From Nitrososphaerota archaeon (GTDB lineage Archaea > Thermoproteota > Nitrososphaeria > Nitrososphaerales > Nitrosopumilaceae), in NCBI GenBank assembly GCA_028867755.1, contig JAGWFT010000001.1:1172149-1236148 (forward strand): 64,000 bases of DNA, in the 5' to 3' direction. Below, in pieces: positions 56,912 to 64,000 of this stretch. Within the stretch, counting starts at the first letter, position 1. Each line of letters opens with the position of its first letter. Made by a program: the position numbers and the translations under genes. A model generated the notes under the pieces. It ran no database searches. It was not told the DNA's origin and saw nothing but the letters and a program-made list of their open reading frames with translations.

Positions 56912-57472
56912 TTATACTCTGTCGTCAGTATGTGCATATTTTTTATCAAGCCTGTAGATTATCGTGTTCTCAGTTAAATCAAATCTTATGTTACAGCCAA
57001 GTTCTTTGAATGCAGACTGGTAAAAATCCCTAAAGTGTTTTGACCATTTAATTCCCATATCATGTCTCATTATGAATTTGACTTCATTTTTATCTTCGAG
57101 CTGAGTAAAACTAAAACCTGCAGCTTTTGCCCTTCCACGCAAAACAGATATCCATTCCCAGACATCATACTTGCCTTTCATTGCAAATAGCATGTCTTTT
57201 GAAACAACTCTTCCTTTTTCCTCTGCAATACTTTGTATTGTTTTTTCGTCGAGTTTATCAAACCACGCCATGAGAAGCACTTTTGACACTGGTACCCATC
57301 CAGATTTTGACGCTACAATATCCCAGTCCACTGCGTGTGCAAGAAGTTGGTTTACCAATGCATTAAGAGTGATTCTCTCAAACGCAGCATGAGATTTGAT
57401 CTTGTCTAGAACTGTCTTATCTATCCTAAATGTTACTGTCTTGTTTTTCTCTGCGGTTGATTCATCGTCCAT
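56912..57472 (-). CDS. Ribbon-helix-helix DNA-binding protein with C-terminal ligand-binding-like domain
   Basis: TVTFRIDKTVLDKIK...LNALVNQLL RHH pattern. Confidence 0.7.
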   Translation of the reverse strand: MDDESTAEKNKTVTFRIDKTVLDKIKSHAAFERITLNALVNQLLAHAVDWDIVASKSGWVPVSKVLLMAWFDKLDEKTIQSIAEEKGRVVSKDMLFAMKGKYDVWEWISVLRGRAKAAGFSFTQLEDKNEVKFIMRHDMGIKWSKHFRDFYQSAFKELGCNIRFDLTENTIIYRLDKKYAHTDDRV

Positions 57473-57607: not shown

Positions 57608-58993
57608 TCATTCAACGTAATGTTTCACTATCAACTGATCATAAAATCTAACTGACTTTATGTTAACAAACTCTAGCATGCCATACCTTGATAGTTCTCT
57701 TCCAAAACCACTTTGTTTTACTCCGCCAAAAGGAACCCGAGGATCAGATACAACAACGTTGTTTACCGTGACAATTCCAGACTCTACGAGTCTGGATAGT
57801 TTGTCAGCCTTGTCCAGATTCTGGGTCCAAATACTTCCCCCAAGACCATATTGTGATTCATTAGCAAGATGTATTGCTTCCACCTCATCTTCCACAATTG
57901 TTACTGGTGCAACAGGTCCAAATGCCTCTTCTTGGGCTATGCGCATCTTTGGTGTGATGCTACCAAGTATTGTCGGACTGTAAAAGTACCCCTTACCGTT
58001 GAGCCTCTTGCCTCCAGTTAGCACTTCGGCTCCCTTTTCTACGGCATCCTTTACAAGATCCTCTATTTTTTCAAGACCTGCCAAATTTACTAGAGGCCCC
58101 ATGTCAGTGTCTTCAGAAGTTGGATCACCCACACGAAGCTTTTCGGTTTTTTGGACAAATTTTTCAATAAATTCTTTGGCAAGGTTTCTTGTAACAAAGA
58201 ATCTTTTAGATGCAATACAGCTTTGTCCACAGTTGATAAAGCGACCTTTAACCGCACCTGCCGATGCTTTTTCAGCATCTGCATCTGAACACACTATAAA
58301 AGGATCGCTACCACCAAGCTCTAGGACGCATTTTTTTATTTTAGAAGTTGCACGTTGTGCAACTTTTGAGCCTGCCATATTGCTACCGGTAAATGTTACA
58401 GCATTAACAGAGTCTACAAGTTGTTCAGCCATGGTAGAGTCAGCAATTGCAGTTTGGAAAACTCCGTCAGGCAGACCTGCTTTTTTGAACATGTTTTCAA
58501 TCTCTATTCCACACTGCATTGTTGCGCTTGCTGGCTTTAGAACAATAGTGTTTCCTGCCATCAACGATGGAGCTGCAAATCTCAGAGCCTGCCAATATGG
58601 AAAGTTCCATGGCATTATGCTTCCAATTACTCCAATTGGCTCAAACGCTATGAAGCTCTTTCTGGCATCGGTGTTTATGGATTCATCATGAAGAAAGGTT
58701 CCTCCATTATCTGCATAAAACTCCATAACCCAAGCGCATTTTTCAACTTCAGACAACGCTTCCTTGATAGTCTTTCCCATCTCTTTAGTGGCAATAGATG
58801 CCAGTTGTTGCTTGTTCTTTCGCAAAACATCAGCAAGGATATTGATAAAATCAGATCTTCTTTTAATATCGACTTTCCAATCAGAGAAAGCCTTTTTTGA
58901 CTTTACTATTTTTTTATCCAGTTCTTCTTTTGTAATCACTTCATATTGTGCCAGAACTTCCTCTGTTGCAGGATTAACTGTCTTAATTATCAT
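57608..58993 (-). CDS. NAD(P)-dependent aldehyde dehydrogenase (succinate-semialdehyde dehydrogenase-like)
   Basis: PWNFP, FTGS, LELGGSDPF, catalytic Cys in GQSCIA, EEAFGP, GGVKQSGFGRE. Confidence 0.9.
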   Translation of the reverse strand: MIIKTVNPATEEVLAQYEVITKEELDKKIVKSKKAFSDWKVDIKRRSDFINILADVLRKNKQQLASIATKEMGKTIKEALSEVEKCAWVMEFYADNGGTFLHDESINTDARKSFIAFEPIGVIGSIMPWNFPYWQALRFAAPSLMAGNTIVLKPASATMQCGIEIENMFKKAGLPDGVFQTAIADSTMAEQLVDSVNAVTFTGSNMAGSKVAQRATSKIKKCVLELGGSDPFIVCSDADAEKASAGAVKGRFINCGQSCIASKRFFVTRNLAKEFIEKFVQKTEKLRVGDPTSEDTDMGPLVNLAGLEKIEDLVKDAVEKGAEVLTGGKRLNGKGYFYSPTILGSITPKMRIAQEEAFGPVAPVTIVEDEVEAIHLANESQYGLGGSIWTQNLDKADKLSRLVESGIVTVNNVVVSDPRVPFGGVKQSGFGRELSRYGMLEFVNIKSVRFYDQLIVKHYVE

Positions 58994-59104: not shown

Positions 59105-60205
59105 ATGCAATCCCTTTCTTCTCGCGAGAAACAAGACTTGCAACAACAAGAGACAGTTCTTGTCTTGCAAGGAGGTGGTTCTCTTGGAGCTTATGAATGC
59201 GGTGTTTACAAGGCCTTGCATAGACATGGCATAAAGTTTGACATTGTAGCAGGAACATCAATTGGGGCAGTAAATGCAGCAATCATTACTGGCAGTAGAA
59301 GTGATGAGCCGGCAAAGGCGCTAGAAGATTTTTGGCTGGATTTGTCAGAAGGTGTAACCCCCAGCAGCTTACCTGATGGGATACGACCATACTTTGCTGC
59401 AACGTATTCTGCAATTTTTGGAAACGCCAAAATGTTCTTTCCAAAATGGTTTGCACCAAGCCCAGATTACTTTATGCCATATTTTTGGCAGTATCTTTAC
59501 GACATAACTCCTCTTAAAAATACACTAAACCAATATGTTGATTTTCAAAAAATTCGAAACTCTAATGGACCAAGGCTTATAATAACATCTACCGATGTTC
59601 AAAATGCAAAGCCTTCTGTTTTTGATAGCAAATATGATAACATTGAAGCAGACCACATCTTGGCTAGTGCAGGATATCCATTCTACGGAATATCTTGGAC
59701 CCAAAAGAGCGGAAAATATCTCTGGGACGGTACTCTTCTGAGCAACACACCTCTTCGTGAAGTAATTAACGCTTCACCAAAACACGACAAGAAAGTCTAC
59801 GTCGTGGATCTCTTTCCAAAAAATCACCCAGAACTTCCAAGTAACATGTTTGAGGTCTGGCACAGGGCAAGGGATATCATGTATACTGACAAGACAGAGC
59901 ATAACGTACACATGTCAAAGATAATCACGCGTTACTTGAAGTTAATACGAGAGATGCATGATATACTTGGCTCTTCCACACTTGATGAAAAGGCCAAGGC
60001 CAAATTTGCACTGTTGGAAACAGAATATCATAAACTTGCCTCAGATCGTGGAGGCATCATAGATAAAATAATAAGAATACAGCGAGAGGAGCATTTTCAT
60101 TTTCTCTTAGAGGATGCAGACTTTTCTCTTGCCACAATAAGAGAATTGATAGAAAGAGGCGAAAGAGATACCAAGCAGGCATTAGCTACAAGCAGTGCAG
60201 AGTAG
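59105..60205 (+). CDS. Patatin-like phospholipase/esterase, candidate PHA depolymerase
   Basis: GGGSLG oxyanion loop, GTSIG nucleophile, DGT catalytic Asp. Confidence 0.9.
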   Translation: MQSLSSREKQDLQQQETVLVLQGGGSLGAYECGVYKALHRHGIKFDIVAGTSIGAVNAAIITGSRSDEPAKALEDFWLDLSEGVTPSSLPDGIRPYFAATYSAIFGNAKMFFPKWFAPSPDYFMPYFWQYLYDITPLKNTLNQYVDFQKIRNSNGPRLIITSTDVQNAKPSVFDSKYDNIEADHILASAGYPFYGISWTQKSGKYLWDGTLLSNTPLREVINASPKHDKKVYVVDLFPKNHPELPSNMFEVWHRARDIMYTDKTEHNVHMSKIITRYLKLIREMHDILGSSTLDEKAKAKFALLETEYHKLASDRGGIIDKIIRIQREEHFHFLLEDADFSLATIRELIERGERDTKQALATSSAE

Positions 60206-60305
60206 ATCTAGTACATAGACAAAAAATTGACTAAAGACAATTTACACAGTGTCAAATGATTATAACGAAAAAGACTTATCATACATGTTTTTACTGTACA
60301 CATAG

Positions 60306-61103
60306 TTGCAAACCAAGTTTGCAGATGTCTGGGGGCACAAAGTAAGGTACTTTGAGGATGGTAGGTCAGATAAAACGATCATTTTACTACATGGATTAGG
60401 CGGCTCGGCAGAGAGATGGTTAAAGGTCATACCCATCCTAAGTCCAAGATACAGGGTTATCGCTCCAGATATGATCGGGTTTGGACATAGCGACAAACCA
60501 TCGGAGGACTATACAATAGAGTTTTTTGGCAAGTTCTTGACTGCTTTTATCAATACACTGGGATTGAAAACAGTGATTCTTGTAGGCACTTCACTTGGAG
60601 GACAAATTGCAGCCAAGTGTGCAAGCAGTAATGATATGATAGAGAAACTTGTGCTTGTTGCCCCCTCTGGAGCTATGAAGCAATCAACTGCAGCAGTTGA
60701 TGCCTACATGATGGCAGCACTGTATCCTAATCATGCAAGTGCCAAGACTGCATTTGAAATGATGTCCAATTCAGGCACCGTAGATGAATTTACTGTATTT
60801 GATTTTGTAAAAAGAATGTCTGCTCCAAATGCAAAACTTGCATTCATCTCTTCAGTACTTGGAATTAAGAACTCAAAGATAGAAGATAGTTTAGAGAAAA
60901 TTATGGTCCCCACCTTATTGGTGTGGGGAAAAGAAGACAGAGTGATACCTATTGAGCATGCCAATCAATTTGTTACCTCGATTAAGAATTGTCAGTTTCT
61001 AGAGTTAAATGACTGCGGCCACTTGCCACATGTAGAAAAACCAGAGCTTTTTTCAGATTCAGTCTTGGAATTTTTAAGCTCAAAGATCATACTGGCCAAA
61101 TAA
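60306..61103 (+). CDS. Alpha/beta-fold hydrolase
   Basis: LHGLGG, PDMIGFGHS, GTSLGG, D(RVIP), GHLPH catalytic triad motifs. Confidence 0.92.
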   Translation: MQTKFADVWGHKVRYFEDGRSDKTIILLHGLGGSAERWLKVIPILSPRYRVIAPDMIGFGHSDKPSEDYTIEFFGKFLTAFINTLGLKTVILVGTSLGGQIAAKCASSNDMIEKLVLVAPSGAMKQSTAAVDAYMMAALYPNHASAKTAFEMMSNSGTVDEFTVFDFVKRMSAPNAKLAFISSVLGIKNSKIEDSLEKIMVPTLLVWGKEDRVIPIEHANQFVTSIKNCQFLELNDCGHLPHVEKPELFSDSVLEFLSSKIILAK

Positions 61104-61114
61104 CAATAGTTAAA

Positions 61115-61169
61115 TACCACTATATGGTAATGATTACCAATGAGTGGTAATGACAACCAATACGAACCA
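61115..61169. promoter_or_regulatory. 10-bp-phased array of TGGT(A/T) boxes, candidate AbrB-type operator
   Basis: TACCA 61115, TGGTA 61125, TACCA 61135, TGGTA 61145, AACCA 61155, AACCA 61165, starting at the TATA box TTAAATA (61110-16). Confidence 0.55.
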
Positions 61170-61559
61170 ACCGAAATGTTCCGCGAATGGATACAGAGAA
61201 GCGGAAAAGCACAGATGGATTTCATGAGGACGTTTGGTGATATAATGAACAGAAACAACCAACTCAACCCCCTGGATACATTAAAGGAGATGACAGACAA
61301 GACAGTCAAAGCCCAATCTGATTTTGTACAAAATCTCACAGATATGCAATCCAAAAACATGAACAACTTGTTTAACCCTTCACAATTCTTACCTTCACTC
61401 CTATCATGGGGGACCTTTAAAACATCAGTCGGAAGTAATGGTCGCATTTCGATACCGGAAGCTGAACGAGACGCTCTTGGAATCAAGGAAGATGACCTTG
61501 TCCAAGTAATCGTCATGCCGGTCGAAAGGAGAAAACAAAAAGAGGAGGTGGAAAAGTGA
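61140..61559 (+). CDS. AbrB/SpoVT-domain regulator with helical N-terminus (PhaR-like)
   Basis: C-terminal GRISIPEAERDALGIKEDDLV AbrB motif; stop overlaps the phasin-like gene start. Confidence 0.85.
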   Translation: MSGNDNQYEPTEMFREWIQRSGKAQMDFMRTFGDIMNRNNQLNPLDTLKEMTDKTVKAQSDFVQNLTDMQSKNMNNLFNPSQFLPSLLSWGTFKTSVGSNGRISIPEAERDALGIKEDDLVQVIVMPVERRKQKEEVEK

Positions 61560-61972
61560 GTAAAACAACAGAGACAAAAGATATCTTTGCAGTACACAAG
61601 CAAAATGTTAACCGATGCTTTGATGAAGCAGAAAAAAACGTTGCACAGTATTTGCAAGCAGTTACTAACCTACAGCAAGAATATGCAACTGCATGCAAAC
61701 ATACAATTGAGAACGCAATTTCAATGCAGCAAGAATATGCTTCAAGAACAGGCCTATCTACAAACGTACCATCAACATACTTCAAGATAGTTAATGATGC
61801 AACAGAAGAGATAGTAAAAACTAGTTCTGTTCAAAACAAAGCCGTGCTTGCAGCAATCGATGCAGTCAGACAAAACGTAAAGACATTCAATGATAACACA
61901 AAAGCGTTTTCAGATATGAATGCAAACATACTGCAATCTTGGTTCTCAGCATGGACACCAGTAAGAAATTAG
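61556..61972 (+). CDS. Phasin-like (PhaP) amphipathic helical protein
   Basis: 138 aa, Ala/Gln/Asn/Thr-rich, predicted all-helical; lies between the AbrB gene and phaC. Confidence 0.6.
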   Translation: MSKTTETKDIFAVHKQNVNRCFDEAEKNVAQYLQAVTNLQQEYATACKHTIENAISMQQEYASRTGLSTNVPSTYFKIVNDATEEIVKTSSVQNKAVLAAIDAVRQNVKTFNDNTKAFSDMNANILQSWFSAWTPVRN

Positions 61973-62000
61973 ATAATAATATCTAAAATTCTTTCTTCTT

Positions 62001-63071
62001 TTATTTTTCAGATCTTTCTTTTAGCCATTGACCAAGTTCTGGCAATACTCTTTTTTGAGAAAATGAGCTGGCTATCATCCCTACATGTCCAGTTGCATAC
62101 ATCCTCAGCGTCTTGTCTTCGCTAGATACAGCATAGTGTATTGGCATGCTACATTCTGGCGATACGAGATGATCTCCTACTGCAACTTGAGTAAAGACAG
62201 GCATCGATATATTTTTGAGATTTATCTGTTTTCCTGCCACATGCATCTGGTTTCTTATCAACAAATTGTCCTGGTAAACATTTTTTATCCATTCTCTGAA
62301 AAGCTCACCTGGGATAGAAGGTGTATCGCTTAGCCACTTTTCCACACGGATAAAGTTTTCAACGTATTCTTTATTGTGTATGTTTTTGAAGAATTGAACA
62401 TATTTTTCAAGGCCCTGTTCGAAGGGCTTTAAGATTGAGAACATATAGTACATGAATTCTGGAGGCATGTTGCCAATTGTATCTACCATCTTGTCAACAT
62501 CCATGTGTTTTGCCAAGTTTGCTACTACTGTACTATCTCTGCTACCATCAATCACAGGAGCCGTGAGAACCAGATTTTTTATCTTCTCAGGATATAATGA
62601 TGCATAGACAGTGGACAGTGTACCTCCGGTACAATACCCCTGCAGGGAAACCTTGTCAACAGATGATTCGTTGAGAATAAAATTAACACAGTTATCCATA
62701 TAGCCATTTACATAATCATCAAACCCGAGATATTTGTCCATGGTAGTTGGAGCACCCCAATCTATCAAGTATACATCCAGGCCTTGATCCAGCATGTTTC
62801 TGACCCAGCTTTTTTGTGGATGGATATCCAGTATGTGATATCTGTTTATTAGAGCATATGCTATCAACAGCGGAGTTTTCACCTGTTTTTGCTGTGAAGA
62901 ATTAAAATGCAGTAGTCTCATCTTACCTTCAGAATATACAACGTCATACGGAGTCATCTCCATGCTGATTTCATCAGGAGCTGCAACCAACTTTGGTGCG
63001 TCAAGAATGTTTTTATTCATCTGCAGAAATTCTGCCAATATTCTTGGGTCTATCCTAAGTTCACTTGCCAT
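62001..63071 (-). CDS. phaC: Class III PHA synthase subunit PhaC (probable start 63071)
   Basis: PLLIAYALIN, lipase box GYCTGG with catalytic Cys, DHLVSP, GHVG; start overlaps the phaE stop. Confidence 0.95.
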   Translation of the reverse strand: MASELRIDPRILAEFLQMNKNILDAPKLVAAPDEISMEMTPYDVVYSEGKMRLLHFNSSQQKQVKTPLLIAYALINRYHILDIHPQKSWVRNMLDQGLDVYLIDWGAPTTMDKYLGFDDYVNGYMDNCVNFILNESSVDKVSLQGYCTGGTLSTVYASLYPEKIKNLVLTAPVIDGSRDSTVVANLAKHMDVDKMVDTIGNMPPEFMYYMFSILKPFEQGLEKYVQFFKNIHNKEYVENFIRVEKWLSDTPSIPGELFREWIKNVYQDNLLIRNQMHVAGKQINLKNISMPVFTQVAVGDHLVSPECSMPIHYAVSSEDKTLRMYATGHVGMIASSFSQKRVLPELGQWLKERSEK

Positions 63072-63639
63072 TTCCGTTTTCTCCTGAATTTGATATTTTT
63101 TCAAGTTTGCCAACTCTTTTTCGCAATAGATGTAATTCTTTGTACAATTCGTCAATCTCCTTCTTTGTAGGCATGTTAACGGTTTCTAGCATAACAGAGA
63201 TAACATTGTTCCAGTGTGTTGCAAGATCAAGCTCACTTGATACCAGTTTTCCAAAGTTTTCTGCAAATTCAGGAGAATCAAATAATCGGGTAAAATAATT
63301 TTCAAATATATCTATCCAGATTCGCTTTGTAGAATCTAGATGTTCTGTATCAGTTGGAATCTCTGGTACTTTTTTGCTAAACTGTTTTTGTGCTTCATTC
63401 CATGTGTCTGTAAGTTGTCTATAGTACTCTGAGAGTCGTTGGTTAAACTTACCCATCTCTTGATTGATTTCTATCATTTCAGCACTAACCTTCTTAGCGT
63501 TAACGCCAAATTTTCGAAATGGTCCTGTAGACATGAGCGATTGCGGTCTGCTTGACATCAGAGATAGCAAATCTGTCCAAAATAAAGAGACGTGTTTGTA
63601 ATATTCTAATGATTTTTGATACTCTTCTGTAGAACTCAT
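63061..63639 (-). CDS. phaE: Class III PHA synthase subunit PhaE
   Basis: IWIDIFENYF...SPEF, MPTKKEIDELYKELHLLRKRV C-terminal motif; upstream of phaC. Confidence 0.9.
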   Translation of the reverse strand: MSSTEEYQKSLEYYKHVSLFWTDLLSLMSSRPQSLMSTGPFRKFGVNAKKVSAEMIEINQEMGKFNQRLSEYYRQLTDTWNEAQKQFSKKVPEIPTDTEHLDSTKRIWIDIFENYFTRLFDSPEFAENFGKLVSSELDLATHWNNVISVMLETVNMPTKKEIDELYKELHLLRKRVGKLEKISNSGENGNGK

Positions 63640-63659: not shown

Positions 63660-64000
63660 GAATTAACGACTTATAGAGATTGCGACAATACATGAGACAA
63701 AGATCAACGTCTCATCGACATCAAATAATTATGAACACATGTCAAGCAATGACTATTCAAATATGCTATAAAACTTGTTCAATTCTACTTTTCAAGAAAT
63801 TCTAAACTATCAAGTTTTCTACCCTCAAGAATATACATCGTGCTACACAGCAGTCCAATAAAATATCAGAACTGGTAAAATATCTTGACAGAAACTTATG
63901 TCATAATGTAATTCATCAACTCATGTATGCAAGAAAAATACCATACAGTAAATGGAAGTAAGATAAGATATGTCGAAGAAGGAGACTCGGAAAACACCAT

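Follow-up and report, generated by a model that had tools for sequence, protein, structure and literature searches.

A likely polyhydroxyalkanoate-granule gene cluster with a PhaR-like regulator and a phased predicted operator in a Nitrosotalea-type ammonia-oxidising archaeon

The distal 64 kb of contig C24 (JAGWFT010000001.1, positions 1,172,149 to 1,236,148), from the 1.64-Mb genome of a Nitrososphaerota archaeon (assembly GCA_028867755.1), carry a group of genes which is likely to be a polyhydroxyalkanoate (PHA) granule gene cluster of a Nitrosotalea-type ammonia oxidiser. This stretch of 64,000 nucleotides, analysed here as a whole, is referred to below as the window. Its nearest relatives are Nitrosotalea metagenome-assembled genomes, whose PhaC proteins are 86–93% identical to the one encoded here. 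An original prediction had described an apparently complete PHA locus composed of a patatin esterase, an alpha/beta hydrolase, an AbrB-domain gene, a phasin-like gene and the synthase genes phaE and phaC, and all six genes were recovered in place by an open-reading-frame listing and family scans.

The synthase genes are located on the minus strand. The phaC gene (62001..63074, 357 aa) codes for the catalytic subunit of a class III PHA synthase, which exceeds the cut-off of the curated model TIGR01836 (429 versus 365.3 bits) and aligns with 42% identity to PhaC from Haloferax mediterranei, the organism whose pha cluster on plasmid pHM300 was used as reference for PhaR, PhaP, PhaE and PhaC. The catalytic Cys, Asp and His residues, found in GYCTGG, in GDHL (the Asp) and in TGHVG (the His), match GYCMGG, DHL and TGHIG of the Haloferax enzyme, which carries in addition a C-terminal extension of about 130 aa that the window PhaC does not have. 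The phaC start is most likely the ATG at 63074 rather than the TTG at 63155, as alignments with relatives begin at residue 1–2 of the 357-aa form. The phaE gene (63061..63639, minus strand, 192 aa), which overlaps the phaC start by 14 nt, codes for the second subunit, passes the Pfam threshold (PF09712, 58.9 bits versus a cut-off of 25.7) and matches Haloferax PhaE by BLASTP (E 3e-8). On the longer bacterial model TIGR01834 it scores 46.5 bits, under the cut-off of 155, as expected because the archaeal form of PhaE is short (182 aa in Haloferax). The synthesis role assigned earlier to phaEC is therefore supported by TIGR01836, PF09712 and the catalytic residues, and PhaE and PhaC almost certainly constitute a bona fide class III PHA synthase, as do their counterparts in H. 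mediterranei. That ammonia oxidisers possess phaEC has been published before (PMC11082331, PMC12542715), and in Nitrososphaera viennensis PhaE and PhaC decrease when carbon is limiting (PMC12542715).

Four plus-strand genes run toward the 3' end of phaC, from which the last is separated by 28 nt. They encode a patatin-like serine esterase (59105..60205), an alpha/beta hydrolase designated ABH1 (60306..61103, 265 aa, TTG start), a PhaR-like regulator of the AbrB type (61140..61559, 139 aa) and a phasin-like protein (61556..61972, 138 aa, GTG start), with the phasin-like start and the phaR stop sharing 4 nt (GTGA). On the other side of the synthase genes, a further alpha/beta hydrolase paralog, ABH2, starts divergently from phaE; only its 5' part (63927..64000, plus strand) is present before the contig ends. 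In H. mediterranei, the gene order is maoC(phaJ)-phaR-phaP-phaE-phaC on pHM300 (PMC7137286, PMC9049629). There, phaR also overlaps a small downstream gene encoding a helical protein; however, phaR and phaP lie upstream of the synthase genes on the same strand, whereas in the window they have their counterparts, phaR and the phasin-like gene, pointing toward phaC from the opposite strand.

The PhaR-like protein combines an N-terminal helical region with a C-terminal AbrB/SpoVT domain. By BLASTP, it is 58% identical to H. mediterranei PhaR over 45 aa (E 5e-16), identity across the DNA-binding domain being 58–65%, and a profile–profile comparison with hhalign between 16 ammonia-oxidiser sequences and three haloarchaeal PhaRs gave a probability of 99.3% (E 2.5e-20) over 83 columns, which span nearly all of the haloarchaeal protein. 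The window protein differs from Haloferax PhaR by about 45 more N-terminal residues; homology of this N-terminus to PhaE or to the phasin-like family was considered and ruled out (hhalign below 3%). When the protein was searched by tblastn against 72,556 plasmids (7.3 Gb), only six matches were obtained, all of them haloarchaeal AbrB genes, and the five that were checked by position lie at or beside pha clusters. Generic AbrB models just miss the protein (Pfam MazE_antitoxin, 24.5 versus 24.7 bits; TIGR01439, 26.9 versus 28.3 bits), and public records label the gene "AbrB/MazE/SpoVT family" or hypothetical, never PhaR. Across related loci, it is followed directly by a small gene with the 4-nt overlap kept and with phaC close by, and phaR and the phasin-like gene are presumably co-transcribed. 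A structure model of the protein (predicted local distance difference test score, pLDDT, 52), too low to use, lends nothing to this assignment. Judged by these sequence comparisons, the AbrB gene is specifically related to phaR of haloarchaea, which codes for a granule-associated AbrB-type repressor, and its product is likely to have the PhaR role. The regulatory function that had been proposed for it is thus upheld by BLASTP, hhalign and the plasmid search, and also by a comparable phased operator.

The ABH1 stop codon and the phaR ATG are separated by 36 nt. The phaR promoter and predicted operator (61110..61149, plus strand) comprise a TTAAATA box at 61110–61116 and four half-sites placed at exact 10-bp steps, TACCA at 61115, TGGTA at 61125, TACCA at 61135 and TGGTA at 61145, which together cover both the TATA box and the phaR ATG. 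A run of four phased half-sites occurs once in the 64-kb window and was reached in none of 200 shuffles; similarly, the inverted-repeat pattern is found in the window only at this position, with 2 matches versus 0.19 expected. The element is kept in related loci, where a non-coding ACC precedes the ATG in at least 80% of 66 distinct sequences. Within 61140–61151, the fourth half-site falls on the codons GGT AAT of PhaR Gly3 and Asn4, two residues invariant in 16 aligned ammonia-oxidiser sequences, and this stretch may be constrained both as coding sequence and as a DNA-binding site. The TATA box stands about 27 nt before the ATG, which suggests that the phaR transcript is leaderless.

A comparable architecture precedes phaR in haloarchaea. 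Upstream of Haloferax phaR, phased half-sites are found at -82 (CACCA), -72 (TACCA), -62 (TACCA) and -52 (TGGTG), a run unique in the 11-kb locus and absent from 200 of 200 shuffles, and upstream of Halogeometricum phaR, three NACCA sites are followed, in phase, by two TGGTA sites. The Haloferax phaRP promoter has been described as containing four tandem repeats, presumed to be where PhaR binds, PhaR acting as a repressor of phaRP (PMC9049629), and these repeats would correspond to the phased half-sites seen at -82 to -52. Both systems thus share 10-bp-phased (C/T)ACCA and TGGT(A/G) half-sites before phaR, although the Haloferax operator lies at -82 to -52 and the window operator overlaps the TATA box and the start codon. 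PhaR most likely binds the four half-sites in the window.

The arrangement of the pha genes is not due to chance, since it recurs across related loci. A comparison of relatives, called for by the original prediction, showed phaE-phaC facing the phasin-like gene, phaR and the hydrolase gene in most of 80 PhaC-retrieved loci from Nitrosotalea and Nitrosopumilus, and in 29 of 30 further genomes the top-scoring phasin-like copy lies between phaR and phaC. Co-occurrence was assessed in a sample of 401 genomes of the phylum. The phasin-like profile is found in 57 of them, the PhaR profile in the same 57 plus one marginal AbrB-only match, and PhaC over the TIGR01836 cut-off again in the same 57, one more genome falling below it. 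These 57 are the window genome, 53 of 56 sampled relatives from its family, the single genome sampled from a second family and both of those sampled from a third; since the genomes are related, the counts do not represent independent events, which tempers their weight. PhaR is present in a single copy in each genome, and no other AbrB paralog was found in the 401 genomes with the PhaR profile at E ≤ 1e-5, apart from one marginal match. The most telling part of the co-occurrence is provided by three Nitrosopumilaceae genomes from three genera, which are devoid of PhaC, PhaR, the phasin-like family and the hydrolase. Co-occurrence with phaEC, chosen beforehand as one observation able to overturn the proposal, therefore holds for three of the four plus-strand genes, namely those of PhaR, the phasin-like protein and ABH1. 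Gene identities, the relationship to PhaR, the operator architecture, synteny and co-occurrence are all directly established.

Several variant loci were encountered. In one rearranged genome (among L133/G020, L132/G353 and L144/G377), phaE-phaC stand 4 kb downstream of the hydrolase, phaR and phasin-like genes on the same strand, with a second phaC elsewhere. A Nitrosocaldus-like genome has a phasin-like frame upstream of a short phaR, and an aldehyde dehydrogenase gene divergent from phaE was seen in a Nitrosocaldus-like genome; in a Nitrososphaera-like genome, BLASTP with the window PhaE revealed no phaE next to phaC. Four haloarchaeal plasmids (L087, L088, L090 and L091) share a MaoC-PhaC-hypothetical-SHOCT gene set with no annotated phaE, phaR or phaP; with an integrase gene just upstream in three of the four, it looks like a mobile reduced PHA module.

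Among the genes facing the synthase, the patatin gene is the one whose connection with PHA is most debatable. Its product contains a patatin domain (PF01734, 101 bits) and a DUF3734 C-terminus (PF12536, 26 bits), and has no signal peptide. It had been proposed to be a depolymerase of the PhaZh1 type, and it was compared with a presumed PhaZh1, namely the H. mediterranei patatin gene chosen by its position after a short-chain dehydrogenase/reductase (SDR) gene on pHM500. Both proteins are cytoplasmic and share the patatin fold, the oxyanion GGG, the GxSxG serine and the DG aspartate: the window motifs GGGS, GTSIG and DGT align with those of the presumed PhaZh1 (GTSIG with GTSGG, WDG with WDG), and the Ser-Asp dyad is intact. 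However, Pfam finds no DUF3734 tail in the Haloferax protein, and the gene upstream, which is bdhA in Haloferax, is in the window a divergent aldehyde dehydrogenase gene (57608..58993, minus strand; PF00171, 489 bits). This succinic-semialdehyde-dehydrogenase-like enzyme has as its best NCBIfam match the NADP-dependent succinic-semialdehyde dehydrogenase model, at 516 bits, under the cut-off of 730.

Several observations weigh against a role of the patatin in PHA metabolism and favour a separate metabolic module, in which patatin, aldehyde dehydrogenase and malic enzyme would act on another ester and the patatin gene would be a mere neighbour of the pha genes in Nitrosotalea. Identity to the presumed PhaZh1 is 22% (E 3e-17, colinear to the C-terminus), and the best plasmid relatives are proteobacterial DUF3734 patatins (31–41% identity). 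Within the window's family, the Nitrosopumilaceae, patatin is present in 5 of 40 sampled genomes versus 37 of 40 for phaC, most marine relatives having none, and its main linkage is to the aldehyde dehydrogenase. In another family of the order (f64; patatin in 5 of 9 genomes, phaC in 8 of 9), a unit with the aldehyde dehydrogenase gene divergent from patatin and malic enzyme genes is kept (L138, L139, L141 and L143), with patatins 64–67% and dehydrogenases 73–78% identical, and in a Nitrosotalea devanaterra-like arrangement the patatin and dehydrogenase genes flank the pha genes on opposite sides. The Nitrososphaera-like family has patatin in 39 of 40 genomes (phaC in 40 of 40) in up to 12 copies, beyond the apparent need of one polymer, and the Nitrosocaldus-like family in 5 of 11 (phaC in 11 of 11). 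As a further point against the PHA reading in general, knockout of PhaZh1 in Haloferax left mobilisation in vivo unaffected (PMC4823750).

The separate module must nevertheless be set against the distribution over 201 genomes of the order, in which patatin occurs in 55, all of them phaC-positive, and in none of the 98 phaC-negative genomes. The gene is also close to phaC in Nitrosotalea loci (within 5 kb) and in one f64 genome (2 kb), its product retains the Ser-Asp dyad with no signal peptide, and the ether lipids of these archaea leave few cytoplasmic ester substrates besides PHA. On balance, the chances of the separate module are about even. What is observed is a lineage-restricted accessory esterase whose primary partner is the aldehyde dehydrogenase, and action of the patatin on PHA is rather unlikely. 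Of the earlier depolymerase assignment, the patatin domain and catalytic motifs stand; orthology to PhaZh1 does not, and the assignment is weakened by the distribution in Nitrosopumilaceae and by the partnership with the aldehyde dehydrogenase. In the Nitrososphaera-like family f3 (G377, G460, G475, G501 and others), many patatin matches fall into two parts of a single open frame, residues 13-85 and 101-360, pointing to a segment inserted after the nucleophile region.

The alpha/beta hydrolase is more closely tied to the synthase. ABH1 (Abhydrolase_1, 116 bits) has a GTSLGG nucleophile elbow and the conserved Asp and His, and it resembles in fold and size the Bacillus-type intracellular depolymerase of short-chain-length PHA (NCBIfam NF050089), a model found within the top two matches of all 15 ABH orthologs (best E 4.2e-36). 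It scores on this model 110 bits, far under the cut-off of 300, and equal or better scores, also below cut-off, are given by the PcaD, AcoC-type and meta-cleavage hydrolase models; ABH1 belongs to the broad PcaD/meta-cleavage hydrolase group. These scores weigh against a depolymerase, and a hydrolase beside a Haladaptatus pha cluster, which had been considered as specific support, was set aside since it is only 23% identical to ABH1. It can accordingly be argued that ABH1 and ABH2 are not PHA depolymerases and act as a thioesterase, a lactonase, a hydrolase of side products of the 3-hydroxypropionate/4-hydroxybutyrate cycle or an enzyme of soluble 3-hydroxybutyrate oligomers only, an alternative that is the less probable one and still has to be taken seriously.

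Genomic context argues for a link with PHA. The ABH1 gene adjoins phaR in Nitrosopumilaceae and in a Nitrososphaera-like genome and stands beside phaC in a Nitrosocaldus-like genome, its linkage to phaR or phaC outlasting several rearrangements in three families. Its ortholog was not found in the three phaC-less Nitrosopumilaceae, from three genera, while two phaC-positive controls scored 445 and 412 bits; it was thus lost together with phaC. The clade of the window has two paralogs, ABH1 and ABH2, about 53% identical. Together with the catalytic residues and the recurrence of the depolymerase model among the orthologs, this makes ABH1 the conserved core candidate for mobilisation, as a depolymerase or an oligomer hydrolase, and it is an even question whether the hydrolase acts on PHA. 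Candidate granule-associated hydrolases are also encoded in the H. mediterranei genome; an alpha/beta hydrolase as a fixed member of the cluster distinguishes the window type.

The phasin-like protein has no Pfam or NCBIfam family and shows no similarity to H. mediterranei PhaP by BLASTP (E 1.3). Homology to haloarchaeal PhaP was rejected by this search and by two profile–profile comparisons with a ten-sequence PhaP profile (hhalign, 1.7% with 17 query sequences and 3.3% with 69), as was homology to PhaE (hhalign below 3%). Among Pfam phasins, only Phasin_2 was matched, below threshold, in 3 of 69 family members (best E 0.0016). An AlphaFold2 model (pLDDT 72) predicts a hairpin of two long helices, 3–65 and 73–133, and the helical hydrophobic moment is well above that of shuffles (z = 5.6; 7.6 for Haloferax PhaP). 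Like haloarchaeal PhaP, it is a small amphipathic all-helical protein encoded immediately 3' of phaR; unlike PhaP, it has no Asp/Glu-rich C-terminal region and is not acidic (Asp plus Glu 10%, pI 6.7, versus 23% and pI 4.1), although the acidity of PhaP may reflect halophily. It resembles PhaP in position and physicochemical properties and is best regarded as an analogue rather than a homolog. Bacterial phasins (Phasin_2, PhaP_Bmeg) are comparable as small amphipathic helical proteins with multiple paralogs, found beside an autoregulated repressor and the synthase; they differ in that the window protein has no significant Pfam match, and the bacterial repressors PhaR and PhaQ differ from the AbrB-type repressor of the window.

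The family is confined to ammonia oxidisers and their close relatives. It comprises 360 representative clusters by exhaustive profile search and 3,486 clusters (90% identity) by word-indexed search, named "hypothetical" save for a few stray labels. As leads only, the ESM Atlas automatically names the cluster of the window protein "putative Phasin family protein", with look-alikes at 0.84–0.89 among PhaP_Bmeg, PHA_synth_III_E, Phasin_2 and PHB_acc clusters. The window genome encodes only one further member, at C24:740290-740709, some 430 kb away from the pha genes; this protein shares 36% identity with the product of a second, divergent phasin-like gene (152 aa), which the close relative L009 has between phaE and ABH2 and the window does not.

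It is conceivable that the 138-aa protein is not a coat protein and instead partners PhaR as a coiled coil, for instance as a co-regulator, scaffold or segregation factor, or that it is a general structural protein linked to phaC by shared ancestry only. In support of this, one can cite the missing homology to any phasin family, a fold search against the PDB returning generic coiled coils only (all E > 0.8), and the fact that coiled coils too typically have amphipathic helices. Moreover, there are 1–9 copies per genome, of which eight extra paralogs examined stand away from pha genes, and phaR and phaC are direct neighbours, the phasin-like gene being missing from between them, in one genus and in a Nitrososphaera-like genome. 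All these points weigh against a phasin. Against the non-coat proposal stand the same position and translational coupling as haloarchaeal phaP after phaR, the absence of every family member, also of the dispersed paralogs, from the three Nitrosopumilaceae that lack phaC, and the phasin-type look-alikes in the atlas; furthermore, bacterial PHA producers normally have multiple dispersed phasin paralogs. A non-coat function thus seems unlikely, and a phasin role of the 138-aa protein is reasonably probable. The phasin assignment made earlier is maintained as regards position after phaR and small amphipathic all-helical character, and abandoned as regards homology to PhaP.

The weakest alternative, in which the AbrB gene and the small gene downstream would form a MazE-type antitoxin–toxin pair with no PHA link, draws on their overlap and on the sub-threshold MazE_antitoxin score, the sole Pfam match of the AbrB gene, and is close to refuted by the absence of any toxin fold or family in the downstream protein, by the plasmid collection, rich in toxin–antitoxin pairs and matching only haloarchaeal phaR-type genes, and by the occurrence of the AbrB gene in one copy per genome, strictly with phaC.

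Monomer supply is less well accounted for. The absence from the window of phaB, the acetoacetyl-CoA reductase gene, was confirmed, and searching the whole genome for PhaB returned only generic SDRs, rejected as candidates with a best score of 179 bits versus a cut-off of 302. No MaoC/PhaJ domain and no PHB dehydrogenase over cut-off were found in the genome; the maoC/phaJ gene, part of the Haloferax cluster, is not in the window. No gene for the supply of (R)-3-hydroxybutyryl-CoA was identified, which counts against the PHA reading, and the description of the locus as "apparently complete" is not supported.

The end of the window is the end of contig C24 and falls inside ABH2, a gene that the original prediction did not mention and whose N-terminal translation resembles the N-terminus of ABH1. 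A full ABH2 of 262 aa is encoded at the end of contig C46 (36294-37113; L146:12292-13080), its first ~108 nt being similar, not identical, to the end of C24, and at the orthologous position L009 encodes a hydrolase to which the ABH profile gives 409 bits. Contig C46 probably continues the pha locus; the similar but differing ends suggest an assembly break where strains vary, or an origin of C46 from a co-assembled close strain. Beyond ABH2, it carries genes of unknown function as well as HD, Lon_C and electron-transfer flavoprotein genes. A phaB gene past the window end, which the original prediction had suggested looking for, was not found, no SDR being encoded among the ten largest reading frames of C46. 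At the other side of the locus, a 186-aa protein with weak ribbon-helix-helix/HicB-like matches is encoded at 56912-57472, between the malic enzyme and aldehyde dehydrogenase genes; a 32% identical homolog adjoins phaE in a genome from another family (L143).

From this gene set, we infer granule binding, autorepression and the substrates of the cluster proteins, and the following model can be proposed. PhaE and PhaC would polymerise (R)-3-hydroxyacyl-CoA. The phaR and phasin-like genes would form a probably leaderless bicistron, translationally coupled through the 4-nt overlap, and PhaR would cover its own TATA box and start site, thereby repressing both phaR and the coat-protein gene. By analogy with Haloferax, nascent polymer granules would titrate PhaR away and allow the 138-aa amphipathic two-helix protein to be expressed, which would then coat the granules. 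ABH1 and ABH2 would mobilise the polymer or its oligomers, and the patatin may add a second esterase, which would have come with the aldehyde dehydrogenase module.

The claim that the regulator, phasin and depolymerase of ammonia oxidisers had not been defined before is consistent with our survey, as none is named in public records or in the searchable literature. In particular, the searchable literature, outside of which most subscription journals lie, yielded no paper in which an AbrB-type PhaR, phasin or depolymerase of ammonia oxidisers is named. PhaP homologs have been said to occur in haloarchaea only (PMC9049629). A 2024 survey searched ammonia-oxidiser genomes for the KEGG entries of PhaR, PhaZ and related proteins, and reported only PhaE, PhaC, BdhA, a hydratase and two dehydrogenases in Nitrosopumilus maritimus SCM1 (PMC11082331).

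Tentatively, PhaR and its phased (C/T)ACCA operator may represent an ancient module for the control of PHA in archaea, common to Halobacteria and Nitrososphaeria, which in ammonia oxidisers would have been joined to their own phasin family and to a dedicated alpha/beta hydrolase. This hydrolase would be the main intracellular PHA depolymerase of archaea, an enzyme yet to be found in haloarchaea, in which knocking out PhaZh1 produces no phenotype. This combined proposal is possible at best. The common PhaR–operator pair provides a handle on the evolution or transfer of the archaeal PHA system between Halobacteria and Nitrososphaeria.

Ammonia-oxidising archaea are among the most abundant microbes of the oceans and soils, and PHA-like granules have been observed in N. 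maritimus. The locus gives candidates for the missing parts of this system: a regulator with a predicted operator, a coat-protein family whose environmental members, thousands in number, carry the annotation "hypothetical", and a hydrolase which tracks the synthase. These candidates could be used as carbon-storage markers in metatranscriptomes and metaproteomes. If the ancient-module proposal is true, marine and soil nitrifiers would run a regulated carbon-storage cycle with a defined, as yet unnamed, set of proteins.

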